Positions 3,455 through 20,024 of a stretch of DNA of 64,000 nucleotides are shown here, in pieces. The stretch covers positions 1,824,001 through 1,888,000 of the forward strand of contig CBDFLJ010000002.1 in assembly GCA_965248835.1 (NCBI GenBank). Direction: 5' to 3'. Made by a program: the position numbers and the translations under genes. The first letter of the stretch is position 1, and each line of letters starts with the position of its first letter. The notes under the pieces are model-generated. The model saw only the letters and a program-made list of their open reading frames with translations, did not search any database and was not told where the DNA came from. Source of the stretch: Alphaproteobacteria bacterium (lineage in GTDB: Bacteria; Pseudomonadota; Alphaproteobacteria; MPNO01).

Positions 3455-3570
3455 GGCGATCGATCACAGCAGCCCCAGTGGCACGGAAGGGTTTATATTT
3501 TCGTGACGATCGTCAAGCCGCGCCTGGTCCCCGAAGCGATCTCCGGCGCTCGCGAACCAAGTGGAAGGTC

Positions 3571-4140: not shown

Positions 4141-4166
4141 TAAGAATTGTTCGACGGAGCCCGCGA

Positions 4167-5411
4167 ATGCACCCGGTACAACTGTTTTGCTGGCACTTCA
4201 TGGCCTACCCCTACCTGCCGGCGGACTTCGACGAGCGCTACGACACCGGCTGGGTGACGGTGCCCAACGCGCTGTGGGACCGCGAAAGGACCGACGGCCT
4301 CTATCAGGACTATATCGACCAGCTCGTCTACGGCGAGGAGCTCGGCTTCGACGGGTTGGTGCTGAACGAGCACCACCAGAACATCTACGGGTTGATGCCC
4401 TCGCCCAACGTGATCGCCGCGGCGCTGACCCAGCGGACCGACCGGGCGAAGCTGGTGGTCCTGGGCAACCTGCTGCCGCTGCACCTCAACCCGCTGCGGG
4501 TGGCCGAGGAGTACGCGATGATCGATTCGATCAGCGGCGGGCGCCTGATCGCCGGGTTCGCGGTGGGCGGCGGTCCGGAGGCCTACAACTACAATGTCCC
4601 CTCGCCGCAGTCGCGCGGGCGGTTCTACGAGGCCATCGACCTGATCATCCGGACCTGGACCGAGGACGGCCCGTTCGAGCACGAGGGGCCGAACTACCCT
4701 TTGCGCTACGTCAACATCTGGCCCAAGCCGCGGCAGGTGCCGCACCCGCCGGTCTGGGTGCCCGGCAGTTTGAGCACGGAAACCATGACCTTCTGCGCCC
4801 AGCGCGGCTTCGACTATTTCCTGTCCTCACGCACCCATGGGGCGGCGACCCGCATGGCGCGCGAGCGGTTCTCCGCGATCCTGAACGACCATGCAGACAG
4901 CTACCATCCGTTCCGGATGGGGGTGCTGCTGTCGGTCTATGTCGCCGAGACGGACGAGCAAGCCAAGGCGGAATCCCGCGAAGGGGTCTGGTATTTCCTC
5001 AAATACTGCCTGAAGGGTCATTTGCGCCGTATCGGCCGGACGCTGACATTCGGGGCGGGCGTGCCGTCCCAGTCGGTCTCCTCGTGGGAAGCGTTCCTCA
5101 GGAACTCGACGCCGGGCGCACCCATGCTGGGCGATGCCGACAGCTGGGAGGAGCTGGAGCAGATGGCATCGATCATCGTCGGCAGCCCGGCCACGGTGAT
5201 CGAGCGGCTGTGGCCGCTGATCGAAGAGGCGCGCGTCGGCAACCTCTTGATCCAGTTCCATTTCGGCAACATGGACGGCGATCTGGCGCGCGAGAGCATG
5301 CGGCTGTTTGCAACCGAGGTCGCGCCGGAACTGCGCGCGCGCTCGGCCGCCCTGTTCGACCGCGAGTATCCGATGCTGCAGGATCTGCCGGCCGCCGGTG
5401 CGGCCGAATGA
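4167..5411 (+). CDS. LLM-class (luciferase-like) flavin-dependent oxidoreductase
   Basis: GFDGLVLNEHHQ, PLRVAEEYAMID..SGGRL, PKPRQVPHPPVW. Start ATG 4167. Confidence 0.88.
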   Translation: MHPVQLFCWHFMAYPYLPADFDERYDTGWVTVPNALWDRERTDGLYQDYIDQLVYGEELGFDGLVLNEHHQNIYGLMPSPNVIAAALTQRTDRAKLVVLGNLLPLHLNPLRVAEEYAMIDSISGGRLIAGFAVGGGPEAYNYNVPSPQSRGRFYEAIDLIIRTWTEDGPFEHEGPNYPLRYVNIWPKPRQVPHPPVWVPGSLSTETMTFCAQRGFDYFLSSRTHGAATRMARERFSAILNDHADSYHPFRMGVLLSVYVAETDEQAKAESREGVWYFLKYCLKGHLRRIGRTLTFGAGVPSQSVSSWEAFLRNSTPGAPMLGDADSWEELEQMASIIVGSPATVIERLWPLIEEARVGNLLIQFHFGNMDGDLARESMRLFATEVAPELRARSAALFDREYPMLQDLPAAGAAE

Positions 5412-6729: not shown

Positions 6730-7936
6730 GCCGCCGGTGCTGATCGCGGGCGCCGGGCCGGTCGGGCTGATGCTGGCGCTCGGGCTCGCCAGGGCGGGCC
6801 ACCCGGTCGAGGTCTTCGAGGCCCGTCCCGATCAGCACGACCAGCCGCGGGCCGCGACCATCCACCCTTCGACCCTCGACATGATGGACGACTACGGCCT
6901 GTACGCGGAGATCGAGCCGCAGGGCCTGGTCGCGCCCATCGTCCATTATTGGGACCGCGCGGCCGACGCGCTGATCGCCGCGTTCGACCACGCGGTGCTT
7001 GACGGCGAGACCCGCCATCCCTGGGTGTTGCAGTGCGAGCAGAACAAGATCGAGCAGTCCGCCTACGACCTCCTGCGCGCATTCCCCCACGCCGCGGTCC
7101 ATTTCGCAACGCCGCTGGTCGGGCTGAGCCAGGGCCCGGACGCGGTGAGCGCGACGGTGGCGGGTCCGGACGGCACCACACGCACCGTAAGCGGCCGCTA
7201 CCTCGTCGGCTGCGACGGCGGCAGATCGGTGGTGCGCGAGACCCTCGGCATCGCCTTCGAGGGCTTCACCTATGCCGACCGGGCGGTGATCATCGGCACG
7301 CCGTTCGACTTCATGGCAGCCAAGGGTTATGCGCTGCGCAACTACTTCTCCGACCCTGACCAGTGGGCCAACCTGTTCAAGATCTCCTGGACCGGCTCGC
7401 CCGGGGTATGGCGTCTGGTGCTGCCGACGCGGCCGGAAGAGCCGGAAGAGGAGATCCTTTCGCAGGCCGGCCTTCAGGAGCGGCTGCAGCGCTTCCATCG
7501 GCTCGACGGCGATTACGAGATCACGCTGGCGAACCTCTATACCGTCCACCAGAGGGTCGCCGCGGACTTCCGCAAGGGACGGATCGTGCTGGCCGGCGAT
7601 GCCGCGCATATCAACAGCCCGATCGGCGGGCTCGGCATGAACACCGGCCTCCACGACGCGGTGAACCTGGCGGAGAAGCTGGATCGGTTGCTGCGCGGCG
7701 AGGCCGAGGACGCCATTCTCGACCGGTACACCCGCCAGCGCCGCCATGTCGCGCTTGCCCACACCAAGGCCCAGACCATGCGCAACAAGCAGCGGCTGGA
7801 GGCCCGCGACCCGGCGGTCCGCAAGAGAAACCACGACGCGTTGCGCGCGGCGTCGCGTGATCCGCCGCGCGCCAAGGCGTTTCTGATGCGAACCGCCCTG
7901 ATCGACGGCGTCCGCGAAGCCGCGCTGATCGAATAG
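6722..7936 (+). CDS. FAD-dependent monooxygenase (MhpA/aromatic hydroxylase family)
   Basis: IAGAGPVGL, LVGCDGGRSVVR, LAGDAAHINSPIGGLGMNTGLHDA. Confidence 0.9.
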   Translation: MAEPPVLIAGAGPVGLMLALGLARAGHPVEVFEARPDQHDQPRAATIHPSTLDMMDDYGLYAEIEPQGLVAPIVHYWDRAADALIAAFDHAVLDGETRHPWVLQCEQNKIEQSAYDLLRAFPHAAVHFATPLVGLSQGPDAVSATVAGPDGTTRTVSGRYLVGCDGGRSVVRETLGIAFEGFTYADRAVIIGTPFDFMAAKGYALRNYFSDPDQWANLFKISWTGSPGVWRLVLPTRPEEPEEEILSQAGLQERLQRFHRLDGDYEITLANLYTVHQRVAADFRKGRIVLAGDAAHINSPIGGLGMNTGLHDAVNLAEKLDRLLRGEAEDAILDRYTRQRRHVALAHTKAQTMRNKQRLEARDPAVRKRNHDALRAASRDPPRAKAFLMRTALIDGVREAALIE

Positions 7937-8046
7937 CGCCCCGGGCGGCGCTTCGGGCGGCGCACCGACGATGGTTGCCGCGGACCGGCGGCGTGCCCAA
8001 TATGCCCGGGTCCCGAACGACACGGAATGTTTCGCCGGAGGTGCGC

Positions 8047-9621
8047 ATGAGCGGTGGGGTCGTGCCCGAAGGCTACCGGGTCTATCCGCCCAGGGTGAAC
8101 ATGTATGCCGAGACTGTGGGGCGTTCGATTGCCGCCGGCTGCGGCGCGATGCCGGCCCTGGTCTGGGACGGCGGCGCGCTGACATACGACGCGCTCGACC
8201 GGGCGGTCGGGCGGGTCGCCGCCGGGCTCCTTGAAGCCGGTCTCAACCAGGGCGATACGATCCTTCTGCGGTCCAACAATCGGCCGGAATCTCCGATCCT
8301 GGCGCTCGCCGCCTTTCGGGTGGGCGCGGTGGCGGTGATGTCGAGCTCGCTGCTGCTCCAGGACGAGGTCGGGTATCTCCTGGAGAACTCCGGCGCGCGG
8401 TTCGCCGCAGCGCCGGCCGATCTCGCCGCACCGCTGGCGGCGCTGCTCGCCGGGGGCGCGCTCGACCGGCTGATCGTGGTCGACGGGCCGGCCGAGACCC
8501 CGGGCCAGATCCCCTACGCGTCCTTCGAGACCAGGGAGCCGATCGGATGGACGGCCGATACCGAGGCGATGGCGCCGGCCTTCATGGTCTATTCATCGGG
8601 CACCACGGGCCGGCCCAAGGGCATATTGCACGGCCACCGCTGGGCGATCACGCTGGGCGATCCGGTGGTGCTGTACAACGAATACGAGCCCGGTGACGTG
8701 ACGATGACGCCGGGCGAATTCAGCTTCATGGGCACTTTCGGCAACAACTTCATCGGCCCGTTGCGCGCGGGCGCAACGATTGCGCTCTATTTCGGGCGCA
8801 CCACCCCCCGCGCGGTCCTCGAGGCGGTGGCGCGGTTCAAGGTGAACAAGTTCCTGAGCGTGCCGACCTTCTACCGCCGGGTGCTGGCCGAGCCCGGCGC
8901 CGAGGACGGGCTCGACCTTTCGGCAGTGCGCTTTTTCACCAGCGCCGGGGAGTCGCTCGGCTCCACCGTGCCCGAGCAATGGTCGCTGCGCTTCGAATTC
9001 CCGATCTACGAGATCTACGGTGTTTCCGAGGTCATGACATGCATGGCCAACACCGCCTACGACGAGGTCAGGTGGGGCTCGATGGGCAAGGCCTTGCCGG
9101 GCTATCGGATGGCGATCATGGACGACCGGCTGGAGGAGGTCGCAGTCGGCGAGCAGGGCCGGCTGATGATCCACCGCGACGATCCCGGCATGTTCCTGTG
9201 CTACCACAACCAATGGGAGAAATGGCAGGCCGCCCACAAGGGTGCGTGGTACGACACCGGCGACGTGATGCGCCAGGACGAGGACGGCTATTACTACTAC
9301 CTCGGACGCAAGGACGACCTGTTCAAGTCGCGCGGCTATTTCATCTCGCCGCAGGAGGTGGAGAACGCGCTGCTGAAGCATCCGGCGATCGCCGAGGCCG
9401 CGGTGATCGGCATCCCGGACGATGCCTACGGCAACCGGATCGCGGCCTTCGCCAGGCTCGCCGGCGGCAGCGCCCCGTCGGCGGCGCTGAGCGAAGAGGT
9501 GCTCGCCCAGACCGCTCGGCGGCTTGCGCCCTACAAGCTGCCCAAATCGCTGGCGTTCCTCGAGGAGATCCCCAAGAACGCGGTCGGCAAGATCCTGCGC
9601 AGCGCGCTGCCGAGACAGTGA
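8047..9621 (+). CDS. Acyl-CoA synthetase / aromatic acid-CoA ligase (AMP-binding family)
   Basis: YSSGTTGRPKG, YGVSE, YDTGD, GRKDD, PKNAVGKILR. GGAGG RBS before ATG 8047. Confidence 0.9.
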   Translation: MSGGVVPEGYRVYPPRVNMYAETVGRSIAAGCGAMPALVWDGGALTYDALDRAVGRVAAGLLEAGLNQGDTILLRSNNRPESPILALAAFRVGAVAVMSSSLLLQDEVGYLLENSGARFAAAPADLAAPLAALLAGGALDRLIVVDGPAETPGQIPYASFETREPIGWTADTEAMAPAFMVYSSGTTGRPKGILHGHRWAITLGDPVVLYNEYEPGDVTMTPGEFSFMGTFGNNFIGPLRAGATIALYFGRTTPRAVLEAVARFKVNKFLSVPTFYRRVLAEPGAEDGLDLSAVRFFTSAGESLGSTVPEQWSLRFEFPIYEIYGVSEVMTCMANTAYDEVRWGSMGKALPGYRMAIMDDRLEEVAVGEQGRLMIHRDDPGMFLCYHNQWEKWQAAHKGAWYDTGDVMRQDEDGYYYYLGRKDDLFKSRGYFISPQEVENALLKHPAIAEAAVIGIPDDAYGNRIAAFARLAGGSAPSAALSEEVLAQTARRLAPYKLPKSLAFLEEIPKNAVGKILRSALPRQ

Positions 9622-9631
9622 GCGCAGCCGC

Positions 9632-10405
9632 TTACCAGATCTCGTCCGGGCGCGGATATTCGACCGGGTTGCCCGCGTGATAGACCGGCGCGCGCTTTTC
9701 CAGGAACGCGCTCAGCCCTTCGGCGCAGGCCTGCGTGCGCGACAGCTCCAGCACCCGGTCGATCTCCAACCGCATGTCCTCGGGATTGCGGTCCTTGTTG
9801 CGGTACAGCCGAAGCGTTTCCTTGGCGAACTTGAGCCCGCGGGTCGGATATGACGCGATCCGCCCGGCCCAGGTAAGAGCGGTGTCCATCAGCGCATCGG
9901 CCGGCACGACCTTGTTGGCGAGCCCGATGCGGTGAGCCTCCTCGCCGAGCACGAACCGGCCGGTGAGGATCATCTCGGCCGCGCGGGCGTAACCGATGAT
10001 CTTGGGCAGCACCCGTGGCGAAGCCCACTCGCTCATGAAGCCCGCCGGCACGGCGATCTCGGAGAGCTTCGCGCGATCGGAGACGATCCTGAGATCGCAG
10101 CACAGAGTGAACTCGAACCCCATACCGACGCACACCCCGTCGATCGCAGCGATCGTCGGCATCGGCAGGTCTTCCCACTTGCGGCAGACCTGCTGAGCGA
10201 CCAGGTGGTGATGGTCGTTCATCCACCAGATCACCATGTCCATATAGGCGCCGTCGAGGCCATGGGTTTCCTCGGGGCGCTCGAGCGGGGCGGTCTCGAC
10301 CTTGAGGTCGCCGCCGCCGGAAAAGTTGCCGCCCGAACCGGTCAGGATCACCGCGCGCACGCGCGATTCGCGGATGTCGTCGACGATGCGATCGAGCTCC
10401 AGCGC
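9632..10405 (-). pseudogene. Enoyl-CoA hydratase/isomerase, 5'-truncated
   Basis: Crotonase motifs AVILTGSGGNFSGGGDL and AAIDGVCVGMGFEFTLCCDLRI. Similarity extends upstream only to ALELDRIVDDIRESRV (~10405); an in-frame TAG lies at ~10440 and the usual N-terminal TLNRP..NA segment is absent. Confidence 0.7.
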
Positions 10406-10538
10406 CGGCGCGGCGGCCCGCGCCGGGATCCGACCAGACTACCGGTTCGGCCGCGGCGGTTCGACGCGCCGCATCGCGTTGCGGCGGCGCGATCTTTCGC
10501 CCGGGCTCCGAAGCAGACAGGACAATGAAGGACAAAAG

Positions 10539-10571
10539 GGGACGTCGTACTTTTTCAAAAAACTGCGTCCC
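10539..10571. repeat. Imperfect inverted repeat GGGACG..TTTTT C AAAAAA..CGTCCC
   Basis: gggacgtcgtactttttcaaaaaactgcgtccc, read directly at the left edge of the cassette. Confidence 0.5.
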
Positions 10572-10591
10572 GAACTGGCGAAACCGCCGGC

Positions 10592-10647
10592 TTGACTCAT
10601 CGGAACTGTAAGATTCTATTACCATGTGTCGGATTAAGGAGGTGCCC
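10592..10647 (+). promoter_or_regulatory. Candidate sigma70-type promoter and strong RBS of the cassette operon
   Basis: TTGACT at 10592, an AT-rich tract with only a weak -10 (TCTATT, 17 nt spacer), and AAGGAGGT shortly before ATG 10648. Confidence 0.4.
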
Positions 10648-10953
10648 ATGGATCCCACCGCACTGAAAGGTAAGCTGATCGCCGTCCTCGGCCAGATTCA
10701 GGCCGACAGCGGCCTCGAGTGCCCGGCACTGACCGGCGCCACCAAGCCGATCGAGAACCTGCCCAAGTTCGACAGCAAGGTCTGGCCTGTCGCAATCACG
10801 ATCCTTGCGACCGAGATCGGCGCGACGATCCCGAACGACGTGAACATCTTCGTCGACGAGACGACCAAGCTCCCACGCTCCATCGACGAGACAGCCGTCT
10901 TCGTCTCCGACTTGCTTAGGAAGCAAAGCGAGCAGGAAGCGGCTGCGGCATGA
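10648..10953 (+). CDS. Acyl-carrier-protein-like small protein
   Basis: 101 aa. LPKFDSKVWPVAITILATEIGATIP parallels the ACP consensus LGxDSL...l...lEeefgi.Ip, and SIDETAVFV parallels TvgdlvdyI. Strong RBS; an acpS gene is in the same cassette. Confidence 0.65.
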   Translation: MDPTALKGKLIAVLGQIQADSGLECPALTGATKPIENLPKFDSKVWPVAITILATEIGATIPNDVNIFVDETTKLPRSIDETAVFVSDLLRKQSEQEAAAA

Positions 10954-11315
10954 CCAAACTCGATTCCGCCAAGCGGGCCCAGATTGCCGAGCGCCTGAAA
11001 GAGGCGCGCAAGCTTGCAGGCCTGTCACAAGGCCATGTCGCCAAGATGCTCGGCCTGCATCGCCCCTCCGTCAGCGAGATGGAAGCCGGCAACCGCCGCG
11101 TCTCAGCCGACGAGCTCGCCCGGCTTGCCGAGATATATGACGTCAGCGTCGTCTGGCTGCTTGGCGAGGCGCCCGAGACACTTGACGCCCAGGACCCGCG
11201 GCTTGAGCTCGCCGCGCGCGAACTCTCAAAACTCAAGCCCGACGACCTGGAACACCTGCTCAAGCTGTTGGCCGCCCTGCGCAGCGATTCCAACGCGACT
11301 GGAGGTGATCGCTGA
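10950..11315 (+). CDS. XRE family helix-turn-helix regulator
   Basis: RLKEARKLAGLSQGHVAKMLGLHRPSVSEMEAGNRRVS; ATGA coupling to the upstream gene. Confidence 0.92.
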   Translation: MTKLDSAKRAQIAERLKEARKLAGLSQGHVAKMLGLHRPSVSEMEAGNRRVSADELARLAEIYDVSVVWLLGEAPETLDAQDPRLELAARELSKLKPDDLEHLLKLLAALRSDSNATGGDR

Positions 11316-12217
11316 TGAACGTGATGCGCACCACCAAGCCCAGCTTCAACCGCCGCGCCCTGGCGACTCAAGCAATGCAGGCCGCCACGGCCACGCGGGC
11401 GAAGGCCGAGCTCGACCAAGCCGGACCGATCTGCATCTACGGGCTGTGCGAGACGCTGGGCATCGTGGTGCGCTTCAACAACATCAACATGGAAGGGATG
11501 TATCAGCGCGGCCTTCCACCACGCATCCATCTCTCGGCACGAAGGCCGCTGCCGCGGCGCACCTACAATTGCGCGCATGAGCTCGGTCATCACGTGTTCG
11601 GCCACGGCTCGTCGATCGACGAACTGCGCGAGGACGCCAAGGCGCAGCCTTGGGAAGACCCAAAGGAGTTCCTGGCCGACACCTTCGCTGGCTTCATCCT
11701 CATGCCGATCATTGGACTGCGCCGCGCCTTCTCGGTCCGGGGTTGGACGCCGGAAACGGCGACGCCGGCGCAGATCTTCACCATCGCTTGCGAGTTCGGC
11801 GTCGGGTACGCGACGCTTCTAACCCACCTCTCGGCAGGCGTGAACATGTTGTCGCGCGGCCGCGCCGCCGCTCTTCAGCGGATCACGCCCAAGGCCCTGC
11901 GCACGGATATCCTCGGTGCGTTGACGCCCGAGCCGCTGATCGTCGCCGATCACCATCGCACCGCGCCCACCTTGGACGCAGAGGTCAAGACGCTGCTTCT
12001 GCTGCCGCCCGGCGCCAAGGTGACGGGCGGCGGACTCGCCTTCGAGCGCGACCTCGCAGCCGGACGCCTGTTCCGGGCGGTGAAGCCAGGGATCTTCCAG
12101 GCAAGCGCCGGTGACTGGGCAGTCTTTGTGCGCCTAGCTCCGGTCCAGAAAAACGAGCCGCACGGCTATGTCGGTCTGGCGCAATACCGGCATCTGGAGG
12201 AGGACCCGGATGAGTAA
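11315..12217 (+). CDS. ImmA/IrrE family Zn metallo-endopeptidase with extra C-terminal region
   Basis: RRTYNCAHELGHH (HExxH), EFLADTFAGFILMP, IACEFGV; TGATG coupling to the XRE gene. Confidence 0.88.
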   Translation: MNVMRTTKPSFNRRALATQAMQAATATRAKAELDQAGPICIYGLCETLGIVVRFNNINMEGMYQRGLPPRIHLSARRPLPRRTYNCAHELGHHVFGHGSSIDELREDAKAQPWEDPKEFLADTFAGFILMPIIGLRRAFSVRGWTPETATPAQIFTIACEFGVGYATLLTHLSAGVNMLSRGRAAALQRITPKALRTDILGALTPEPLIVADHHRTAPTLDAEVKTLLLLPPGAKVTGGGLAFERDLAAGRLFRAVKPGIFQASAGDWAVFVRLAPVQKNEPHGYVGLAQYRHLEEDPDE

Positions 12218-13064
12218 GGCCAGGAATCTGGTGGCGCCGCCGCCCCTGGTGATCGACGACACCAATCTGTCGCGCGCCTGGGCACGGCTGCTTCTGCAGG
12301 TTCTCGACGGCGCCGGCACGGAGGTCGCCCCGTTAATCCTGAGCCTGAGCGGCTTCGCCCAAAACGGCGCCGCCGTCGAAGACCCTGCGGTGCGCCAAGC
12401 CCTCGATCAGCTGCTCAAGCGCAAGGGCCGAATCGTGGTCGAGAACGTCGCGTTCACGATCTTCCCACAGGGGCTCTGGGAGATGTCGCGCGGCGACCGG
12501 ACTCGCCTTTTCGCCCGCTATCGCGCGACATTCCCGCGCTGGCAGGCGATGAACCGCAGGGCCAATGGCCGCGGCCTGTATTTCGAGCGCATGGTCATGT
12601 ACGGGCGCGGCCCGTGCGACGGCAATCAACTGGAGTGGATCTTGTCTCAATTCAATTCCCGGAAGGGCGTGCGCCGTTCGATGCTTCAAGCGACCACCTT
12701 CGATCCAGGCCGCGACCACGTCGCCAGCGCGCAGCTCGGCTTTCCGTGCCTGCAGCAGGTGAGCTTCGAGCCTACCGCGGCCGGGCTCGTTACCAACGCC
12801 TTCTATGCGACCCAGCAGATTTTCGACAAAGCCTATGGCAACTATCTCGGCCTAGCCCAGCTCGGCGCCTTCATGGCCCGTGAGATGGGCATGTCGCTCG
12901 CGCGCCTGAACGTCATGGTCGGGGTCGCCAAGCTCGACCGGATCAACAAGAGCGATGCCGATCTTGTCCCGCTGGTCGCAGCCGCTCGGGCCCTCGTATC
13001 GCCGCCCACTGCCCCGGCGCCGCGAACGCCTATCTCCACTGCGAGCGCCGGAGCAACGCTTTGA
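12210..13064 (+). CDS. Divergent thymidylate-synthase-fold protein
   Basis: YFERM, NQLEWIL, RRSML, FDPGRD, FPCLQQVSF (catalytic PC) and AYGNY occur in TS motif order. GGAGGAGG RBS before ATG 12210. Confidence 0.7.
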   Translation: MSKARNLVAPPPLVIDDTNLSRAWARLLLQVLDGAGTEVAPLILSLSGFAQNGAAVEDPAVRQALDQLLKRKGRIVVENVAFTIFPQGLWEMSRGDRTRLFARYRATFPRWQAMNRRANGRGLYFERMVMYGRGPCDGNQLEWILSQFNSRKGVRRSMLQATTFDPGRDHVASAQLGFPCLQQVSFEPTAAGLVTNAFYATQQIFDKAYGNYLGLAQLGAFMAREMGMSLARLNVMVGVAKLDRINKSDADLVPLVAAARALVSPPTAPAPRTPISTASAGATL

Positions 13065-14203
13065 ATGCGAGGTCGCCCAAAGTCCCCAAGAAACGTCCGC
13101 GAGGCCGTCCCCGGAAACCTCGTCCCAGCGCAGTCAACGCATCGCTCCCGATGGAGCTGCCCTTCGCGGTTCGGCCCGCGGCGCCCGCGCCGATCATCCT
13201 GCGCCACCTTGCGCCAGCCACAGTGTCCGAGGTTTATGAGAACTATTGGCGCTTCGCCGCCGAAAGGCAGGCGGTGTTTTTCCGCCGTGTGCGCGGCGAG
13301 ACTCGCCCATGGACGGACAATCCGGTGCTGGCGATTTACAAGTTCACCAACGCCTACCGCGCGTCCGACCGCGTCAGCCAGTATCTCATCCGCCATGTCA
13401 TCTATCGAGACGATCTACCCAAGTCACCGCTCGAAGTGTTCTTCCGCATCCTGCTGTTCAAGCTGTTCAACAAGATCGAGACCTGGGAGCTCCTCGAAGG
13501 CGCGCTCGGCCCAATCACCTTCGAGGACTATCGCTTCGCCGCCCATGACGCCGTGCTCTCGCGCGCGATGCAGACCGGACGTCGCATCTACTCGGCCGCG
13601 TACATCATGCCGCCGGGCAGCCGCTCCTTCGGGCGATCGGCCAAGCACCAGAACCATCTGTTGCTGCTCGAACGCATGATGGCAGATCGGCTTGCCGAGC
13701 GATTGGCCCAGACCCGCACCATGCAGGAGGGCTTCGAGAAGCTGCGTGCCTACCCAACGATCGGCGACTTCCTCGCCTACCAATTCATCACCGACATCAA
13801 TTACAGCGAACTCACCGATTTCAGTGAGATGGACTTCGTCATACCCGGCCCGGGCGCGCGCGACGGCCTGCGAAAATGCTTCGTCGATCCGGGCGGCCTG
13901 AACGAACCCGAGCTCATCCGGCTGATGGCCGACCTGCAAGAACAAGAGTTCGAACGGCTGGGCCTCGACTTCCAATCACTCTGGGGCCGCCGCCTCCAGC
14001 TGATCGACTGCCAGAATCTGTTCTGCGAGGTCGATAAATATGCGCGCGTGGCGCACCCGCAGATCGCGGGAAAGACCGGCCGTGTACGCATCAAGCAGAA
14101 GTTCGTTCCGACCTCGGAGCCGATCGGTTTCTTCTACCCCCCCAAGTGGAAGCTCAACAACAAGATCCGCGTCGCCGCGCTGCAGCGCGCTGCAGCCACG
14201 TGA
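13061..14203 (+). CDS. aGPT-Pplase clade-1 / 5-hmdU-DNA modification helical-domain family protein (putative DNA base hypermodification protein)
   Basis: YWRFAAERQ, PWTDNPVL..YKFTNAYRASDRVSQ, LFKLFNK, IGDFLAYQFITDI, GPGARDGL, DCQNLFCEVDKY. TTG start overlaps the TS stop; a later ATG at 13151 is possible. Confidence 0.78.
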   Translation: MNARSPKVPKKRPRGRPRKPRPSAVNASLPMELPFAVRPAAPAPIILRHLAPATVSEVYENYWRFAAERQAVFFRRVRGETRPWTDNPVLAIYKFTNAYRASDRVSQYLIRHVIYRDDLPKSPLEVFFRILLFKLFNKIETWELLEGALGPITFEDYRFAAHDAVLSRAMQTGRRIYSAAYIMPPGSRSFGRSAKHQNHLLLLERMMADRLAERLAQTRTMQEGFEKLRAYPTIGDFLAYQFITDINYSELTDFSEMDFVIPGPGARDGLRKCFVDPGGLNEPELIRLMADLQEQEFERLGLDFQSLWGRRLQLIDCQNLFCEVDKYARVAHPQIAGKTGRVRIKQKFVPTSEPIGFFYPPKWKLNNKIRVAALQRAAAT

Positions 14204-14220
14204 CGCCGAAGGAGACGCGC

Positions 14221-15117
14221 ATGGATTTCAACGGCTATCAGAAGGAGGCGCTGCGCACCGATCGTGTGCCCGCGCGCGACGATGCCACCTCGTTGATCGT
14301 GCCCATGCTTGGCCTTGCCGGCGAAACCGGACAGCTACTCAGCGAATACAAGAAACACTTGCGCGACGGCGAGGCACATCGCCTATTCAAGGACCGCGTG
14401 TCCGAGGAATTGGGCGACCTGCTCTGGTATATCGCCAACGTTGCCAGCAAGTTCGATCTCTCGCTCTCCGACATCGCAGCGGCCAACTTGGCCAAGGTCA
14501 AGCAGCGCTGGGCGAGCGAGCGCGCCGAGCCGTTAACCTTTGACGCCGAGCTTCCCGAACGCGAGCGCCTGCCGCGCCGGTTCGAAGTCGAGGTGATCGA
14601 TGTCGAGGGGGGTGCGCGCCAGCACGTGCGGCTCCTGATCGATGGCAAGCCGCTTGGCGCGGAGCTCACCGACAACGCGTACGATCCCGACGGTTATCGC
14701 TTCCACGACGTCTTCCACTTCGCCTACGCCGCCGTGCTTGGCTGGTCACCAATCACGCGGGGGTTGCTCCGGCGAAAGCGCAAGAGCCGACCGCTGCTCG
14801 ACGAGGTGGAGGACGGCGGCCGCGCGGCCGTCATCGAAGAGGGCGTGGTGGCGCTCACGTTCGACTATGCGCGTCGCCATCACTTCCTCGACGGCGTGGC
14901 CGCCCTCGATTTTCAGTTGCTGCGCACGATCAAGGACATGACGTCCCATCTGGAAGTACGGCGATGCACCACCGGCGAATGGGAGCAAGCCATTCTGCAG
15001 GGCTTCGACGTGTGGCGTGTGGTGCTCGCCGCGCGCGGAGGCCATATCGCCGTCGATCTGGGCGCCCGGCGCATCACCTTTCTAGGCCCGTCCGCCGGTC
15101 AGGAACCGCGCGCATGA
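14221..15117 (+). CDS. MazG-like NTP pyrophosphohydrolase with C-terminal MazG-associated domain
   Basis: LGLAGETGQL..EYKK and EELGDLLWY (MazG fold); C-terminal DNAYDPDGYRFHDVFH..LGWSP..DEVEDGGRA. Confidence 0.85.
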   Translation: MDFNGYQKEALRTDRVPARDDATSLIVPMLGLAGETGQLLSEYKKHLRDGEAHRLFKDRVSEELGDLLWYIANVASKFDLSLSDIAAANLAKVKQRWASERAEPLTFDAELPERERLPRRFEVEVIDVEGGARQHVRLLIDGKPLGAELTDNAYDPDGYRFHDVFHFAYAAVLGWSPITRGLLRRKRKSRPLLDEVEDGGRAAVIEEGVVALTFDYARRHHFLDGVAALDFQLLRTIKDMTSHLEVRRCTTGEWEQAILQGFDVWRVVLAARGGHIAVDLGARRITFLGPSAGQEPRA

Positions 15118-15503
15118 GCCTCCGCACCCAATGCGAGAACGCTCGCCATCGCCACGCCGCCGGCATGGCTGATGCTGAGCCGCCAAGCGGTCACTCCCAA
15201 CGCCGTGGCGGCCTTCGCCGCGCCGCCCGAAAGTCGGACCTCCGGCGCCGCGCCCGGCGCGCGTTGGATCATCACATCGGTGAAGGCGACCCCTGCCCCG
15301 AAGCCGGTGCCGACCGCCTTGAGCACCGCTTCCTTAGCGGCGAACCGCCCCGCCAGGCGCTCGATCCGATCGACCCCATCGCCGATCTCATCCAGCTCGG
15401 CTTGCACGAAGCAACGCGGAATCAGTGGGTCGCGCGGATCCTCTATCCACCGCCGCATCTCGGCGATGTCCACTAGGTCAATGCCGTGTCCGACGACGTT
15501 CAT
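15099..15503 (-). CDS. acpS: Holo-[acyl-carrier-protein] synthase (AcpS-type PPTase)
   Basis: MNVVGHGIDLVDI, LAGRFAAKEAVLKAVGTG, LSISHAG. Start ATG 15503, within the longer listed ORF. Confidence 0.92.
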   Translation of the reverse strand: MNVVGHGIDLVDIAEMRRWIEDPRDPLIPRCFVQAELDEIGDGVDRIERLAGRFAAKEAVLKAVGTGFGAGVAFTDVMIQRAPGAAPEVRLSGGAAKAATALGVTAWRLSISHAGGVAMASVLALGAEAHARGS

Positions 15504-15596
15504 AAGACCCGTTTTTCCTCGAGGCGACACATGAATGGGGCCCCAACGCTCGGGAACGCCGTGAATCAATAATAGAGAGCAGGGGGAAACAAAGCG

Positions 15597-16349
15597 ATGA
15601 CCAAGCTGCCAGCCATGTTCTGGAGCGGGGAGACCCTCAGCGAACGGCTCAAGACGCTGATAGACCCGTTCGTCTCCGGACGAGTGGATTGCGCCGCTTA
15701 TACGCTTTCGATCGGCCCGGAAGTCTATGTGTCGCCCAACGACCAGACCGCCGATCCGACCACGGTCACGATCCGCAAGCTCAGCGAGGGAGAGGCGTTC
15801 ACCATCCCGCCCGGCCAGTTCGCCTTCCTGCTCACCGAGGAGGTCGTCTCCGTCCCAGCGGATGCGCTGGCCTTCATCTCCATTCGAGCGAAGACCAAGT
15901 TCCGTGGTTTGGTCAACGTATCCGGGTTTCATGTTGATCCTGGCTATCGCGGTCAGCTGACGTTCGCGGTCTTCAACGCCGGTCCTGTGCCAGTCCACCT
16001 CAAGCGCGGACAACCGACATTCCTGATCTGGTACGCGAGCCTCGACCGCGAGACCGCCTTCAAGAAGGACGGTACGATTCACAAGGGCATCGATCCCGAG
16101 CTAGTAACGGCCGTCGCCGGCGAACTGCAATCCTTCGCCGGCCTCTCCAAGAAGATTGAGGACGTCGACAAGGCGCTCCGCGACCGCGTCCATGCACTTG
16201 AAAAGGAGCAGACCGGATACCGCGTCATCGGCGCGGTCGCGTTGGCGCTCATGATTGCGCTGACCGTGAACTGGCTTACGGACAGCATCCCGTCTCGTTC
16301 GGCGCCGCCCCCGCAGGCAACATCGCCGTCGCAAGCGCCAACTCAGTAG
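15597..16349 (+). CDS. dcd: dCTP deaminase (trimeric dUTPase fold) with C-terminal coiled segment and transmembrane helix
   Basis: AAYTLSIG, IPPGQFAFLLTEE, GFHVDPGYRGQL; C-terminal VIGAVALALMIALTVNWL. Confidence 0.78.
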   Translation: MTKLPAMFWSGETLSERLKTLIDPFVSGRVDCAAYTLSIGPEVYVSPNDQTADPTTVTIRKLSEGEAFTIPPGQFAFLLTEEVVSVPADALAFISIRAKTKFRGLVNVSGFHVDPGYRGQLTFAVFNAGPVPVHLKRGQPTFLIWYASLDRETAFKKDGTIHKGIDPELVTAVAGELQSFAGLSKKIEDVDKALRDRVHALEKEQTGYRVIGAVALALMIALTVNWLTDSIPSRSAPPPQATSPSQAPTQ

Positions 16350-16633
16350 ATCGCCACGTCAACCTCGATGGCAGCTCGTCCGACGGGCCTGTCCGGCCCC
16401 GTCGTTCCGCCACGGCGCGCGCCAGCAGGATCGTCAGGCATTGCCAGTGCCCGGCAGCATTCTACCCTTGGCGGTCACGCCGCCGAGATCGGCGTCAATC
16501 GAGATTCCGCCGACGTTGAGGCCCGCCCCATCCCTGCACGCCCTAACGGATACGACCGCCCGGATTGGCGGACGCAGAAAACGGCCGCTGCGGCAGGAAA
16601 CCGGTCGGCTGCACACTCCGCCCCACCCCTCGG

Positions 16634-16729
16634 CCGAACGAATCCACGGCTTGTCCGAACGAATGCGCCTGTCGCGCGCTCGAATGCGTTGGAATTGAAT
16701 GAATCCGCTTACGGTCTGCTTACGTTACG
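16634..16729. repeat. Short phased direct repeats at the right edge of the cassette
   Basis: CCGAACGAAT at 16634 and 16655; CGAAT three times with 21-nt period; GCTTACG at 16707 and 16718 plus TTACG at 16725. Confidence 0.45.
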
Positions 16730-16784
16730 GCGTTGGATCATCGAACCGAGTCGCGCGTCAGATGCGCGTAGCGCGCCGTCGTCT

Positions 16785-17856
16785 CGGTCCGTCGGATGGA
16801 TCACCACGCCGCGCCCGCACAGATCGATCAGTTGATCGACCATGTGCGGGACGTTCTCGAGATAGTAGGCCCGGCCGAAATCGACGAAGATGTTGTTGGG
16901 CTTATAGAGCCCGCCCGGGGTGAATATCCCGGTTTCTTCGGCGGCGAGCGTGAACGCCCGGCAGGTTTCCCGAAAGCGCACCAGGTCGGCAACCTGGGAT
17001 TGCACGATCGGTGCGGCGTTGGTCCCCAGACTCTCGGTCACAAGAACCGCCAGACCCGCAATCAGCTCCGCATTGATGACGTGACGGGTCTGGGTCTCGA
17101 TATGGATCCAATCGAAGATCCGCTGCGGGTACGGCATCGCATGGTCGAGGTTGCCGAGAGGCCGGACACGGTCCCAGGGGATCAGCACGTCGTCGAAATA
17201 GGCCATGCTGCCGAGTTCGTCGCCTTGGCTCGATAGCGGCCAGTCATATTCGCTCGCCCCGTCCAAAGCGTTGGAACGCCGCGTCACATGGGTGATGTTG
17301 GGATGGTTGACCGGCACCATCGCGAAGACCTCCTGCTCGGGCACGGCTCCCGGCTTCCACAAGATGCCGACCTCGATCTCGTTGGCAAAGACGACCATCG
17401 GCGCGATGGCGCGATCCTGGCTCCGGAGTTCATTCCAGCAATCGCGGATGTTCTGGGCGAAGGGGCCGTCCTTGCCGAAAACGGTCTGCGCCTCCCAGAC
17501 TTCGGGGTCATCGACCAGGGTGAACATGACTGTGTTGGTGCTCCCCGGCGGGCGGGTCCACACCTGGGAGTGACACCAAAAGAACTCGTGTCAGTTGCGC
17601 CGGGCGAGGACGTCTTCCTTCGAGCGCGGCAACATCCAGTGCTTGGCCCGACACTCGCCGTCTTCGTCTGGTGCCGCGGATCGCGGTGCAAATCGTAGTA
17701 GCGCGCGATCATGGCGGCACAACCGCGCGTTTTGGGGTGGGTCGTCAGATCTTCGATTCGTTCACCGTCGCAATAGACGTTCCGCCCGTCTCTGATCGAG
17801 TCGAGATATTCTTCGCCGGTCCGCTCCCTTGATATGCATTTGGTTTCTGGCGACAT
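16785..17856 (-). pseudogene. Degraded two-component flavin monooxygenase, TftD/TcpA/HadA (chloro/nitrophenol 4-monooxygenase) branch of the HpaB family
   Basis: N-terminus RTGEEYLDSIRDGRNVY..TTHP is in one frame; DDPEVWEAQ, PLSSQGDELG, YPQRIFDW and GGLYKPN..DFGRA are in another. Internal segments and the C-terminus are missing. Confidence 0.8.
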
Positions 17857-17927
17857 CGAAATGTGTCGTCGATTTCGGGTATAGATTGCCAAGCCCAAAG
17901 TCCAGGATAGTAGCCTGAACTTAAGGC

Positions 17928-20024
17928 CTATTCGACCGTATCCGGCTCGGTTTCGAAGGTGATCAGGTAGTTGTCCAGGCGATCGACGTTCACGCGGTCG
18001 CCGGGGCCGACGACGACGGTGGTCGTCGCCTCCTCGATGATCGCGGGGCCGTGGAAGCTCTGGCCGGGGCGAAGATCGGCGCCGCTGTAGATCGGCGTGT
18101 CCAGAAAGCCCGCGGCGGTTCCGGTGTGGACCGGGCGCCGACCGGACGGCTCGGGCGGGTCCTCGGTGGTCTCCAGCACCACGTCGCGCAGCGGCGGCAG
18201 AGTGCCGATGCCGACCACCCGCAGCTTGGCGACGATGATCCGTCCGCCCGGGTTGGTGTGGCCGAACTGGCGGTCGTATTCGGCCTCGAAGGCTGCGCGA
18301 ATCTCGTCCTCGCCCGCGTCGGCGGCGGCCAGCAGCACGCGCACGTCCCACTGCTGGCCCTCATAGTGCAGGTCGAGTTCGTGCTGGAACCGGGTATCGC
18401 CGGGCTCGAAGCCCTCGCGGCGCAGGGCATCGGTCGTCTGGCGCTCCAGTGACGCGAACCCGGCGGCAACCGCCGGGCCGACCGCGCCGTCGAGCCGGTG
18501 CATCAACACCTGGACGAAGTCGCGGCGCACGTCGGCGTGCTGCATCCCGATCGCGCAGAAGGCGCCCGCCTGGCGCGGCACATAGACCGCGCGCGCGCCC
18601 AGCCGGCGACCGACGCTGGTACCGTGCATCGGGCCCGCGCCGCCGCAAGCGATCAGCATGAACCGGCCGGGGTTGTAGCCGCGCTGGATCGAGATCCGCT
18701 CGACGGCATGGAGCAGGTTCTGCTCGACGATGCGGATGATCCCGACCGCCGCCTCGGCCCGGTCGATGCCGAGCGGTTCGGCGATCGTCTCCTCGATCGC
18801 CTGCTCGGCGGCGGCGAGATCGAGGTTCACCGAGCCGTCGGCATAGGGTCCGGGCCGCAGCCGACCGAGCACCAGATGGGCATCGGTCACCGTCGGCGCG
18901 GTTCCGCCCAGCCCGTAGGCGGCGGGTCCCGGCGCCGCGCCCGCGCCCTGCGGCCCTGCGAACATCATGCCGGCCTGATCGATGCCCGCGATGGTGCCGC
19001 CGCCGGCGCCGACGGTATGGATATCGACCGAGGGCGTGACCAGGTCGTAGTCGTTGACCGAGAGCGCATCGGTGATCGCCACCCTGCCCTCCGACATCAG
19101 CATCACATCGCAACTCGTCCCGCCGATCTCCATGCTGACCAGGTTGGTCTCGCCCAGGCCGCGGGCGAGATGGGCCATCGCGCCGACCCCGGCGGACGGA
19201 CCGGACAGCAGCAGGTTGACCGGCTGCTCGATGAGCTGGTCGAGCGAGGCCGCGCCGCCGTTGCTCTGCAGCATCAAGAGCCGGGTCTTGAGCCCCATCT
19301 CGGACAACCGGTCCGACAGGGCGTGCAGGTAGGAGGCCACGCGCGGCATCACGTAGGCGTTGACCACCGTGGTCGAGCTGCGCTCGTACTCGCCCATGAT
19401 GGGCACGATCTCCGAAGAGACCGAGATCCACGGGCAGACGTCCTCCTCGCGCAAGATTTCTGCGGCGGCGCGTTCGTGGACCGGATTGATGAAACTGTTG
19501 ATCAGGCAGATCGCCACCGACTCGACGCCCTCGGCGCGGAAGGCCGCCGCGGCCGCGCGCACGTCATCGACCGAAAGCGGGGCGCTCTGCGTGCCGTCGG
19601 CATCGATCCGCCCGCGCGCCGGCAGGCGCAAATACCGTGGCACCAGCACCGGCGGATAGGGGGTGCGATGATCCCACGGGTCCTTGCGCAGGCCCCGCCG
19701 CGCTTCCAGGCTGTCGCGGAACCCCGCCGTGGTCAGCAGACCGACGCGCGCGCCCTTGGCTTCGAGCAGCGTGTTGGTCGCAACCGTCGAGCCGTGCAGA
19801 AAAAACGCGCACTCGCCGAGGAACGCCGCGGTCGATAGACCCAGCGCCTGGCATGCGCGCTCGAGCGCGGCGATCACCCCGCGGCCGGGGTCCTCGGTCG
19901 AGGACGGTACCTTGAAGACCTCGGTATGGCCCTCGGCGTCAGCGACCACCAGATCGGTGAAGGTGCCGCCGACATCGACGCCGACGCGCCAGGGCGGGCT
20001 TTCCAGGCTAAGATCGGCGTTCAT
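17928..20024 (-). CDS. Hydantoinase A / 5-oxoprolinase ATP-dependent subunit family
   Basis: VGVDVGGTFTD, HGSTVATN, EYERSSTTVVNAY, SGPSAG, GAGGGTIA. Start ATG 20024. Confidence 0.92.
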   Translation of the reverse strand: MNADLSLESPPWRVGVDVGGTFTDLVVADAEGHTEVFKVPSSTEDPGRGVIAALERACQALGLSTAAFLGECAFFLHGSTVATNTLLEAKGARVGLLTTAGFRDSLEARRGLRKDPWDHRTPYPPVLVPRYLRLPARGRIDADGTQSAPLSVDDVRAAAAAFRAEGVESVAICLINSFINPVHERAAAEILREEDVCPWISVSSEIVPIMGEYERSSTTVVNAYVMPRVASYLHALSDRLSEMGLKTRLLMLQSNGGAASLDQLIEQPVNLLLSGPSAGVGAMAHLARGLGETNLVSMEIGGTSCDVMLMSEGRVAITDALSVNDYDLVTPSVDIHTVGAGGGTIAGIDQAGMMFAGPQGAGAAPGPAAYGLGGTAPTVTDAHLVLGRLRPGPYADGSVNLDLAAAEQAIEETIAEPLGIDRAEAAVGIIRIVEQNLLHAVERISIQRGYNPGRFMLIACGGAGPMHGTSVGRRLGARAVYVPRQAGAFCAIGMQHADVRRDFVQVLMHRLDGAVGPAVAAGFASLERQTTDALRREGFEPGDTRFQHELDLHYEGQQWDVRVLLAAADAGEDEIRAAFEAEYDRQFGHTNPGGRIIVAKLRVVGIGTLPPLRDVVLETTEDPPEPSGRRPVHTGTAAGFLDTPIYSGADLRPGQSFHGPAIIEEATTTVVVGPGDRVNVDRLDNYLITFETEPDTVE

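Follow-up and report, generated by a model that had tools for sequence, protein, structure and literature searches.

A predicted carrier protein with a dedicated AcpS accompanies a thymidylate synthase-fold enzyme in a horizontally transferred gene cassette with a predicted XRE/ImmA switch

Introduction

Enzymes of the thymidylate synthase (TS) fold occur together with nucleotide- or DNA-modifying proteins in two kinds of described gene sets. In the thymidine-hypermodification clusters of phages such as M6, ViI, and PaMx11, a clade-1 gene of the PF18723 family stands beside the gene of a TS-like hydroxymethylase, and the exocyclic C5 methylene that arises in the pathway accepts nucleophiles (PMC8989533). 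The DefensePredictor study describes a validated Escherichia coli system ("DS") with TS, deoxynucleoside monophosphate (dNMP) kinase, "5hmdUk," and NMAD domains, shows unvalidated systems with aGPT-Pplase, MazG, MazG-C, dUTPase, and helix-turn-helix (HTH) domains in its Fig. 6F, and cites Burroughs 2015 for earlier predictions (PMC13092281). Here we analyze a 64,000-nucleotide stretch of the genome of an Alphaproteobacteria bacterium (MPNO01; assembly GCA_965248835.1, contig CBDFLJ010000002.1, positions 1,824,001 to 1,888,000 of the forward strand), referred to below as the window, and within it an eight-gene cassette (g1 to g8) that encodes, in order, a carrier-like protein, an XRE-family repressor, an ImmA/IrrE metallopeptidase, a TS-fold enzyme, a PF18723 protein, a MazG-type pyrophosphohydrolase, an AcpS-type transferase, and a Dcd/dUTPase-fold protein.

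The cassette shares with the DefensePredictor systems the vocabulary of TS-fold, PF18723-type, MazG plus MazG_C, dUTPase-fold, and HTH proteins, for which defense and nucleotide modification have been proposed, but the validated system has a dNMP kinase and NMAD, both absent here, and no mechanism was given for it (PMC13092281). The new element is a carrier protein with a dedicated AcpS as core partner of a TS-fold enzyme. A first-pass annotation of the window had named no characterized system that combines ACP/AcpS with these enzymes, a statement in need of qualification, since related sets of the other genes have been validated or predicted by DefensePredictor. Full-text literature searches returned no paper that links a carrier protein or a phosphopantetheinyl transferase (PPTase) to such a defense system; the text of the DefensePredictor paper, as distinct from its figures, names no acyl carrier protein (ACP), PPTase, or carrier, so Fig. 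6F may or may not show this operon (PMC13092281). The Brig3/BapA preprint, as far as its content bears on the subject, offers a conceptual parallel only.

Carrier proteins and PPTases are familiar from lipid, polyketide, and peptide synthesis. To our knowledge, carrier proteins have no described place in nucleotide or DNA chemistry or in immunity, and we know of no description of a partnership between a carrier protein and a TS fold.

Results and discussion

Carrier-fold protein g1 and the AcpS-type transferase g7

The first gene, g1 (10648–10953, forward strand), encodes a protein of 101 amino acids (aa) that was identified from its structure model and a sequence motif. The AlphaFold2 (AF2) model, with a predicted local distance difference test score (pLDDT) of 91, placed helices at residues 3 to 21, 34 to 37, 46 to 57, and 79 to 100, and nearly all of the top 50 Foldseek matches in the PDB were ACPs with template modeling (TM) scores by target of 0.54 to 0.74; the best of them, 4dxe_I, is the ACP of an AcpS-ACP complex and was a weak match (E 0.018, TM by target 0.69). 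F41-D42-S43 and W46 were invariant in an alignment of 19 sequences, and Ser43 is the putative site of phosphopantetheine attachment, its motif being in register with the DSL serine of the genome's own AcpP and with the GFDSL sequence of an ACP encoded on an Allocoleopsis plasmid. The latter, named "acyl carrier protein" in RefSeq, is the first gene of a cassette on that plasmid and aligned with g1 in hhalign at 99.4% (E 1.9e-21). In a neighboring Atlas cluster of g1, 23% of the members carried PF00550. We conclude from the model that g1 is a predicted carrier-protein-fold protein. When compared with the phosphopantetheine-binding carriers as a class, it had the fold and the D-S-x sequence at the N-terminus of helix II and missed the PF00550 threshold. 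It shares with type II carriers (AcpP/AcpS and stand-alone peptidyl carrier proteins) the four-helix fold, the serine at the start of helix II, a cognate AcpS-type transferase, and a modeled docking through helix II, but unlike them it scores below that threshold, is encoded with no loading or condensing enzyme, and has a TS-fold protein as its modeled partner.

The AcpS-type 4'-phosphopantetheinyl transferase is encoded by g7 (15099–15503, reverse strand), which matched the Pfam ACPS family (PF01648, 1.4e-13, 51.2 bits against a cut-off of 25) and TIGR00516 (70.9 bits against a cut-off of 59.8). D8 and E57, presumably its catalytic residues, were kept in at least 95% of 34 orthologues. The gene was found in 32 of the 36 loci that have g1 to g6 and in 34 of the 39 that have g4 (the survey of loci is described below). 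The genome contains another acpS (G000:C2:574465) as well as a two-domain dcd and a dut, so the acpS and dcd-like genes of the cassette are extra copies. By its sequence and distribution g7 is predicted to be a dedicated AcpS, the second in the genome, that is co-inherited with the cassette. That it might be a housekeeping acpS present by chance was considered and is ruled out by the second genomic copy together with this co-inheritance.

The first-pass annotation had the carrier deliver an acyl or aminoacyl group. Across all eight proteins, searches with Pfam and NCBIfam were negative for adenylating, ligase, ketosynthase, and condensation domains; nothing in the cassette would therefore be able to load the carrier, and the delivery proposal is unsupported. 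With no loading enzyme, a free thiol is the likely player if the arm of g1 is chemically active.

TS-fold enzyme g4 and its modeled complex with g1

Like g1, g4 (12210–13064, forward strand, 284 aa) had zero Pfam matches and was identified by structure work and a conserved motif. It is not a bona fide ThyA, its match to TIGR03283 (3.6e-09) reaching 36.4 bits against a cut-off of 174.55. A Foldseek search with the g4 model gave 76 matches at E ≤0.001, and all of those shown belonged to the TS superfamily, with MilA first (1.1e-06), followed by AfhB and ThyA. When the g4 profile was compared with PDB sequences, MilA alone was returned (E 0.065), with the region of the active-site cysteine aligned. 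MilA, the cytidine monophosphate (CMP) hydroxymethylase of mildiomycin biosynthesis, is thus the closest solved fold to g4. The motif F178-P179-C180-L181-Q182 and the stretch F-D-K-A-Y-G-N-Y-L-G-L were invariant in 18 sequences, and C180 was also conserved in a homologue from Streptomyces. These results identify g4 as an enzyme of the TS/pyrimidine-C5 hydroxymethylase fold.

A model of g4 in complex with g1, the one pair to which complex modeling was applied and for which each protein was given as an alignment, received a score of 0.82, whereas the best of three controls received 0.03. A score of 0.82 was reached by 58 of 80 solved complexes and by 2 of 110 mismatched pairs, counts that are only approximate because our own alignments were supplied. 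Three runs agreed in at least 97% of the contacts, with a partner pLDDT of at least 91. On the g1 side, the modeled interface consisted of residues 17, 20 to 22, 43 to 45, 47 to 48, 50 to 51, 55, 63 to 64, and 66, which include Ser43 and helix II; on the g4 side, it consisted of residues 79 to 94 and 103 to 115. Residues 81 to 92 of g4 form a helix with an E-L-L-W-type motif, as placed by the MilA alignment, and we take this motif to be the one that lines the active-site cavity of TS-family enzymes. We know of no solved complex between a TS and a carrier protein, so the score is unlikely to reflect memory of a solved structure. The modeling supports, short of proof, the TS-fold g4 as the binding partner of the carrier g1.

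Docking at a helix that lines the active site means that the phosphopantetheine arm could reach the site of C5 chemistry. In one conceivable form of such chemistry, which we regard as quite doubtful, the thiol of the holo-carrier would act as a nucleophile or one-carbon shuttle in a TS-type reaction, so that the arm becomes joined to the C5-methylene of deoxyuridine and the weapon is a protein-tethered nucleotide or a DNA-protein crosslink, the PF18723 protein possibly helping on DNA. This idea has a precedent, because the thiol β-mercaptoethanol adds in vitro to the exocyclic C5 methylene intermediate of the phage pathway (PMC8989533). If true, it would represent both a new use of a carrier protein and a new kind of nucleic-acid modification.

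The likeness of g4 to MilA can also be read in another way, namely that the genes form a small cluster for the biosynthesis of a natural product of the modified nucleoside or nucleotide type, such as a 5-hydroxymethyl-pyrimidine antibiotic precursor, with the participation of a carrier protein; a carrier protein encoded together with a PPTase is, moreover, a hallmark of secondary metabolism. We consider such a cluster very improbable, given that searches of the cassette with Pfam and NCBIfam gave no sign of adenylation, condensation, ketosynthase, thioesterase, glycosyl-transfer, or export functions, that near-identical cassettes occur across phyla beside toxin-antitoxin and Abi genes, and that XRE/ImmA control is typical of mobile and defense loci.

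Conservation, mobility, and genomic context

There were 589 homologues of g1, and the 120 listed matches were 81 to 91% identical across Alphaproteobacteria, Gammaproteobacteria, and Acidobacteriota. Relatives of g1 were sought by a pattern scan of a single genome for each species; the 54 loci obtained belong to Alphaproteobacteria, Gammaproteobacteria, Acidobacteriota, Gemmatimonadota, Binatia, and one metagenome-assembled genome of Actinomycetota. The 49 loci with at least 6 kb downstream of g1 were taken as informative, and their genes were scored by tblastn. Genes g1 to g7 were present in the same order and orientation in 32 of the 49 (in 28 with every gene at ≥80% coverage), an arrangement therefore kept far beyond chance. 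Conservation started approximately 60 to 100 nt upstream of g1 and stopped after g7 or g8, and the flanks differed between loci. The claim that these genes form a unit is upheld by these data, since 32 of the 36 loci with g1 to g6 combined the ACP-like gene and acpS with the genes for the TS-like, PF18723, and MazG proteins; of the genes whose co-occurrence was to be checked, the ACP-like gene and acpS were conserved in this proportion, whereas the dcd-like gene was found in only 20 of the 32 full cassettes.

The cassette is uncommon and unrelated to its catabolic surroundings, as the first-pass annotation had also noted. Among 401 sampled genomes of the phylum, with that of the window counted, MazG_C was found in 6 and the g4 family in 4. 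Among the listed matches of 20 relatives, none matched the cassette in the interval 7000–20000, and the flanks matched relatives at 80 to 88% identity in separate places. The GC content over the cassette was slightly lower, at 0.63 to 0.66, than the 0.66 to 0.73 of most flanks (10000–17000). No convincing direct repeats flanking the cassette were found.

Elsewhere the surroundings are mobile and defense-like. Relatives of g4 were located on 16 plasmids, 11 of them predicted to be conjugative, and pattern-based scans of viral contigs, which may miss distant relatives, confirmed none of g1 or g4. We examined 503 flanking open reading frames (ORFs) within 8 kb of the cassette at the 54 loci, keeping those with excess GC at third codon positions. 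The recurrent clusters among these ORFs were tyrosine integrase (10 loci), transposase-like (7 loci), HipA (6 loci and, as a second cluster, 3 loci), Fic and AbiEii (5 loci each), DUF6088 (4 loci, with AbiEii), ArdC (4 loci), and OLD-like ATPase-TOPRIM and SbcC-like ATPase (3 loci each), and Pfam confirmed 9 of 10 cluster representatives. A plasmid of Sinorhizobium fredii has VapBC and an integrase on one side of the cassette and an "ABC-three component system" on the other; on a Tardibacter plasmid, the cassette is flanked by AbiE and by type IV secretion genes.

Ten of the 49 informative loci (L008, L010–L015, L019, L035, and L057) had intact g1 and g2, sometimes with a truncated g3, and no enzymes; we read them as remnants. 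Alternative effectors were sought in these loci and rejected, as what follows downstream is a truncated g3 and then insertion sequence (IS)/transposase-like or unrelated ORFs. Among the same ten loci, a divergent upstream Fic gene was common to four and a HipA gene to five.

The persistence of g1 with g2 in these 10 of 49 enzyme-less loci, a behavior known of orphan antitoxins, raises the question whether g1 is a chemical carrier at all. It could instead be a regulatory or inhibitory, antitoxin-like subunit that plugs or gates g4 or the ImmA protease and is tuned by AcpS. Its position as the first gene, translationally coupled to the repressor, its modeled placement on the active-site-lining helix of g4, and the lack of a carrier-loading enzyme in the cassette are all compatible with such a role. 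The invariant attachment serine and the co-inherited, dedicated AcpS point to a functional prosthetic arm, and we judge a purely regulatory g1 to be unlikely, while taking it seriously.

Distant variants and the constant core

Distant relatives of the cassette retained some of its genes and exchanged others. In two genomes of another class (type C; L070 and L071), a g1 homologue is followed by XRE, ImmA, TS-like, PF18723, and MazG genes, and the first gene of L071 matched g1 in hhalign at 98.3%; no acpS or dcd-like gene was present within 10 kb. The Allocoleopsis plasmid (Cyanobacteriota) has the same six genes, the first of which is named ACP, with no acpS in the fetched flanks. On a Streptomyces plasmid, an ACP (so named in the record), an HTH protein, ImmA, and a TS-like protein are encoded together, with MazG and PF18723-type genes on the opposite strand on either side. 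The TS-like protein of that plasmid matched g4 in hhalign at 99.6%, whereas its ACP had no detectable similarity to g1 (hhalign E 0.13), and the fetched flanks contained no acpS.

In type B (L058 and, in part, L032), g1, XRE, ImmA, TS-like, a protein of 170 to 194 aa, a Dcd-like membrane protein, and AcpS are encoded on one strand; the 170- to 194-aa protein had no Pfam match, and L058 was without PF18723 and MazG_C genes. In type D (L067–L069 and the Tardibacter plasmid), an 89-aa first gene precedes XRE, ImmA, C1 peptidase, and TS-like genes, and these converge with genes for uracil-DNA glycosylase (so named in the Tardibacter record), MazG-MazG_C, and DUF4031. The 89-aa protein showed no significant similarity to g1 (hhalign E 0.34), and its nearest Atlas cluster is auto-named "Acyl carrier protein" (score 0.95), which we treat as a lead only.

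The survey of variants thus yields a constant core of a carrier-like protein, XRE, ImmA, and a TS-fold enzyme, usually with a MazG-type pyrophosphatase, to which PF18723, AcpS, and Dcd-like proteins are frequent additions. In at least four phyla, TS-fold cassettes open with a conserved carrier-protein gene, in many cases accompanied by an AcpS of its own.

Two observations on variant gene content may be recorded here. The C1 peptidase that lies between ImmA and the TS-like gene in type D is of the papain family (L067, 7325–7975; L088, 5310–5990). At a Sinorhizobium fredii locus (L086, pSfreNXT3a, 2683–5167), three genes are located immediately upstream of the cassette and point away from it: a second and longer member of the TS family (351 aa, TIGR03283 1.3e-24), a Dcd-like gene, and a gene for a 167-aa hypothetical protein. 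The three could represent an additional nucleotide sub-module comparable to the 170-aa and Dcd-like proteins that are paired in type B.

Repressor, protease, and operator

The product of g2 (10950–11315, forward strand) matched HTH_3 (PF01381, 1.6e-14) and the PADLOC capH model (6.2e-18), and the gene was present in 54 of 54 loci. The product of g3 (11315–12217, forward strand), an ImmA/IrrE (M78) metallopeptidase, matched Peptidase_M78 (8.3e-15) and PADLOC capP (5.9e-10); its HEXXH motif (H88-E89-x-x-H92) was kept in at least 95% of 38 orthologues, and its C-terminal extension of approximately 130 aa had no family match. Upstream of g1, a candidate promoter with operator spans 10592–10622 on the forward strand, with a −35-like TTGACT at 10592–10597 and a palindrome, GTAAGATTCTATTAC, at 10608–10622 over the −10 region, and is followed by a Shine-Dalgarno sequence, AAGGAG, at 10636–10641 on the same strand that is conserved upstream of g1. 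The consensus of the palindrome in 17 loci was GTAAGATTATCTTAC, and the 17 aligned upstream regions shared just TTGAC, the palindrome, and the Shine-Dalgarno sequence, each invariant or nearly so. The palindrome pattern occurred once in the 64-kb window against 0.07 expected occurrences, with no second copy near acpS or g8. A strict sigma-70 scan found nothing.

A palindrome in this position, within the promoter of the operon that encodes the XRE protein, has the appearance of an autoregulated operator. The identification of g2 and g3 as an XRE/ImmA switch, made in the first-pass annotation, is therefore supported by the capH and capP matches, the intact HEXXH motif, and the conserved operator, and by analogy with the CapH/CapP and ImmR/ImmA families, cleavage of the repressor would lead to induction. 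These same features make up the likeness to the CapH/CapP pair of cyclic-oligonucleotide-based anti-phage signaling systems (CBASS) and other systems. The difference lies in the effector set, which here has no CD-NTase, and in the carrier-protein gene that precedes the repressor.

PF18723 protein g5 and MazG protein g6

The match of g5 (13061–14203, forward strand) to PF18723 was strong (1.2e-110, 369.7 bits against a cut-off of 25, profile positions 2 to 280 of 281). The family is named "HMUDK_hel" by Pfam, aGPT-Pplase clade 1 by phage depositors, and "nucleotide kinase domain-containing" by PGAP. Homologues of g5 were found in 490 phage records, including those of ViI-like and M6-like phages, all at less than 60% identity, and two depositors annotate such homologues (H25 and H28) as aGPT-Pplase1. 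The gene order in an M6-like phage is aGPT-Pplase2, pyridoxal phosphate (PLP) enzyme, radical S-adenosylmethionine (SAM) enzyme, kinase, aGPT-Pplase1, Nmad5, and TS; by this synteny, we infer gp55 to be the clade-1 counterpart of g5 in phage M6. The published account of the phage pathway assigns the 5-hydroxymethyldeoxyuridine (5-hmdU) DNA kinases to the P-loop type and identifies the clade-2 proteins as amino-acid:DNA transferases; M6 gp55 was dispensable in vitro (PMC8989533). The family names are thus no guide to the activity of g5, its putative counterpart gp55 being dispensable. Assignment of g5 to the aGPT-Pplase family, as first proposed, is correct for the clade-1 type and does not extend to the amino-acid:DNA transferases of clade 2. 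The N-terminal basic tail of g5 contains a canonical AT-hook core, P-R-G-R-P-R-K-P (13061–13130). Its RGRP core recurs in 28 of 38 orthologues and suggests DNA as the substrate or platform.

The MazG protein g6 (14221–15117, forward strand) is an NTP pyrophosphohydrolase domain fused to MazG_C. The match to MazG_C (PF18722) was clear (5.9e-77, 258 bits), and that to MazG (PF03819) was marginal (23.5 bits against a cut-off of 22). Residues E35, E42, E62-E63, and D66, an acidic motif that we take to be the metal-binding residues of MazG, were kept in at least 95% of 32 orthologues. Searches for a solved structure were negative for both the g5 family and MazG_C. With their catalytic-type residues conserved, g3, g4, g6, and g7 look like intact enzymes.

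The PF18723 family is otherwise seen in phage thymidine-hypermodification clusters, which together with the AT-hook suggests a role in self-modification or anti-restriction: an induced plasmid or integrative and conjugative element (ICE) would hypermodify thymidine or uracil of its own or host DNA, in the manner of a phage, so as to escape restriction. Copies of the cassette on conjugative plasmids beside type IV secretion and ArdC anti-restriction genes fit this scenario, and ImmA/XRE pairs also govern ICE induction. Unlike the phage clusters, however, the cassette has by Pfam no P-loop 5-hmdU DNA kinase, clade-2 aGPT-Pplase transferase, PLP enzyme, or radical-SAM enzyme; g4 has no close likeness to the phage TS-like protein (hhalign E 0.78), the phage cluster examined is without a carrier protein (an 87-aa phage ORF compared with g1 gave hhalign E 0.93), and the g1 and g4 families were not found in the viral contigs scanned. 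The copy in the window and many others lie outside any recognizable element, and the 10 of 49 loci with just g1 and g2 beside IS elements are more easily explained by a cargo that is costly to keep than by a harmless modification. It would also be odd for a protective epigenetic mark to depend on an operon that is repressed until damage induces it. We hold self-modification to be rather unlikely.

Dcd-like, probably membrane-anchored protein g8

The last gene, g8 (15597–16349, forward strand), encodes an accessory Dcd/dUTPase-fold protein with matches to Pfam DCD (PF22769, 2.6e-16) and, below the cut-off of 92.8, to TIGR02274 (72.4 bits). In the best PDB alignments an alanine stands opposite the catalytic glutamate of Dcd, presumably E138 in E. 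coli numbering, and the E. coli E138A mutant (1xs4) ranks second among them. After rows of less than 80% coverage or less than 60% identity had been dropped, the position was alanine in 18 and serine in 3 of 21 orthologues, and two distant copies also had alanine. The g8 protein is therefore not a deaminase. Its C-terminal extension ends in a hydrophobic segment that, as read from the sequence, probably spans the membrane.

The step from deoxycytidine triphosphate (dCTP) to deoxyuridine triphosphate (dUTP) that the first-pass annotation had assigned to this gene is not supported, because the catalytic glutamate is replaced in all 21 orthologues and the gene is missing from 12 of the 32 full cassettes. 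As a candidate supplier of dUTP, g8 is rejected on account of the missing residue. The gene identities first given held for the set, with "dcd" valid as a fold label only. Compared with defenses that act through dCTP deaminase or depletion of deoxynucleoside triphosphates (dNTPs), the likeness is confined to the Dcd/dUTPase fold; g8 differs in lacking the catalytic glutamate and a fused kinase, in having a C-terminal membrane segment, and in being optional. In such loci, a gene annotated as "dCTP deaminase" can thus encode a membrane-anchored nucleotide binder that is catalytically dead.

As MazG and dUTPase-fold proteins are well known for house-cleaning and the switch is of the SOS type, the cassette could also be read as a stress-induced operon for nucleotide-pool sanitation or salvage with no role in conflict. 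This seems to us highly improbable. The cassette is rare and patchy (approximately 1% of sampled genomes), absent from the listed matches of 20 relatives, and horizontally transferred; g8 is without its catalytic residue, and the genome has separate housekeeping copies of dcd, dut, and acpS.

Proposed function

We propose that the cassette is a self-contained, horizontally transferred, inducible conflict system directed at C5 of pyrimidine deoxynucleotides, at DNA, or at both, with a carrier-TS core, and we think it probable, with some reserve, that its target is phage. Computation directly yielded the genes of the set, their conservation and mobility, the operator and the folds, which catalytic residues are intact and which are missing, and the confident complex model. 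In the resting state, XRE (g2) bound to the palindrome over the −10 region would keep the g1 to g6 operon low. Upon a trigger such as DNA damage or infection, ImmA (g3) would remove g2, by analogy with CapH/CapP and ImmR/ImmA. The transferase g7, transcribed separately, would convert g1 to its holo form on Ser43, and holo-g1 would, according to the model of g1 with g4, dock through helix II onto the g4 helix that borders the active-site cavity of TS-family enzymes. From what is known of the families, g6 would supply or process the nucleotide (dNTP to dNMP) and may re-phosphorylate it, and g5 with its AT-hook would work on the DNA polymer. The output would be a C5-modified deoxyuridine-type nucleotide or a DNA lesion, with the effect of halting phage replication or aborting the infected cell. 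In this scheme g8 would be an optional, non-catalytic, membrane-anchored nucleotide-binding protein.

Several findings weigh against a carrier-TS defense system. No nuclease, polymerase, or obvious killing effector is among the eight proteins, no PADLOC model matches g1 or g4 to g8, and the only membrane protein of the cassette, g8, is dispensable in 12 of 32 cassettes. There is no tRNA anywhere in the window and no integrase near the window's own copy, which has catabolic neighbors instead. For g1, Pfam, NCBIfam, PHROG, and PADLOC gave no match, and PF00550 was absent at E values up to 0.01; a search of the whole genome with PF00550 found three other places and not g1, and hhalign aligned just 14 columns of the g1 profile with the genome's AcpP, in register. 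The dedicated AcpS is not universal, as the L070/L071, Allocoleopsis, and Streptomyces variants are without acpS in the fetched flanks. The AF2 model of g4 had a pLDDT of 62 and was poor over residues 108 to 179; Foldseek TM scores were just 0.3 to 0.5 because of this weak model, and g4 is read here at the level of the fold, with the choice between deoxyuridine and deoxycytidine monophosphate left aside. The complex score expresses how confident the model itself is, and because docking through helix II is usual for carrier proteins, some of the g1-g4 signal may be generic. Every mechanistic step described above comes from inference or modeling.

If the g1-g4 model holds, it would provide a testable handle on the TS/PF18723/MazG/MazG_C defense candidates, which have been predicted, and for one relative validated.

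Gene calls and surroundings of the cassette

All eight ORFs of the proposed cassette were present where they had first been placed, with small corrections of start sites that followed from comparison across loci: g4 starts at 12210, with a conserved MSKA- N-terminus, and not at 12168, g6 starts at 14221, and g7 starts at 15503. Clear family matches were obtained for six of the eight proteins (g2, g3, and g5 to g8). The reported overlaps at the junctions of the first five genes were measured as 4 nt (g1/g2), 1 nt (g2/g3), 8 nt (g3/g4), and 4 nt (g4/g5). A gap of 17 nt separates g5 from g6, and g6 and g7 are convergent with an overlap of 19 nt. An Rfam search of 10000–17000 returned nothing, and terminator-like sites were no commoner than in shuffled sequence.

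Three metatranscriptome runs of one study yielded contigs 90 to 99% alike to all parts of the cassette, for example to 10831–11460 and 14820–15897. These contigs are sequences of relatives in an RNA library and make no statement on the transcription, transcript structure, or transcript levels of the copy in the window.

Downstream of g8, the intergenic sequence at 16386–16525 has a 75% match on the same contig (G000:C2:1744053–1744192) and may be a small repeat. Beyond it, a gene that we take to be HpaB-like (the large subunit of 4-hydroxyphenylacetate 3-monooxygenase) occupies 16709–18351 on the reverse strand in two overlapping frames, 16709–17563 and 17284–18351, which points to a frameshifted pseudogene or a sequencing error. 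A paralogue of this stretch, with 77 to 84% identity, is located at G000:C2:638071–639233.

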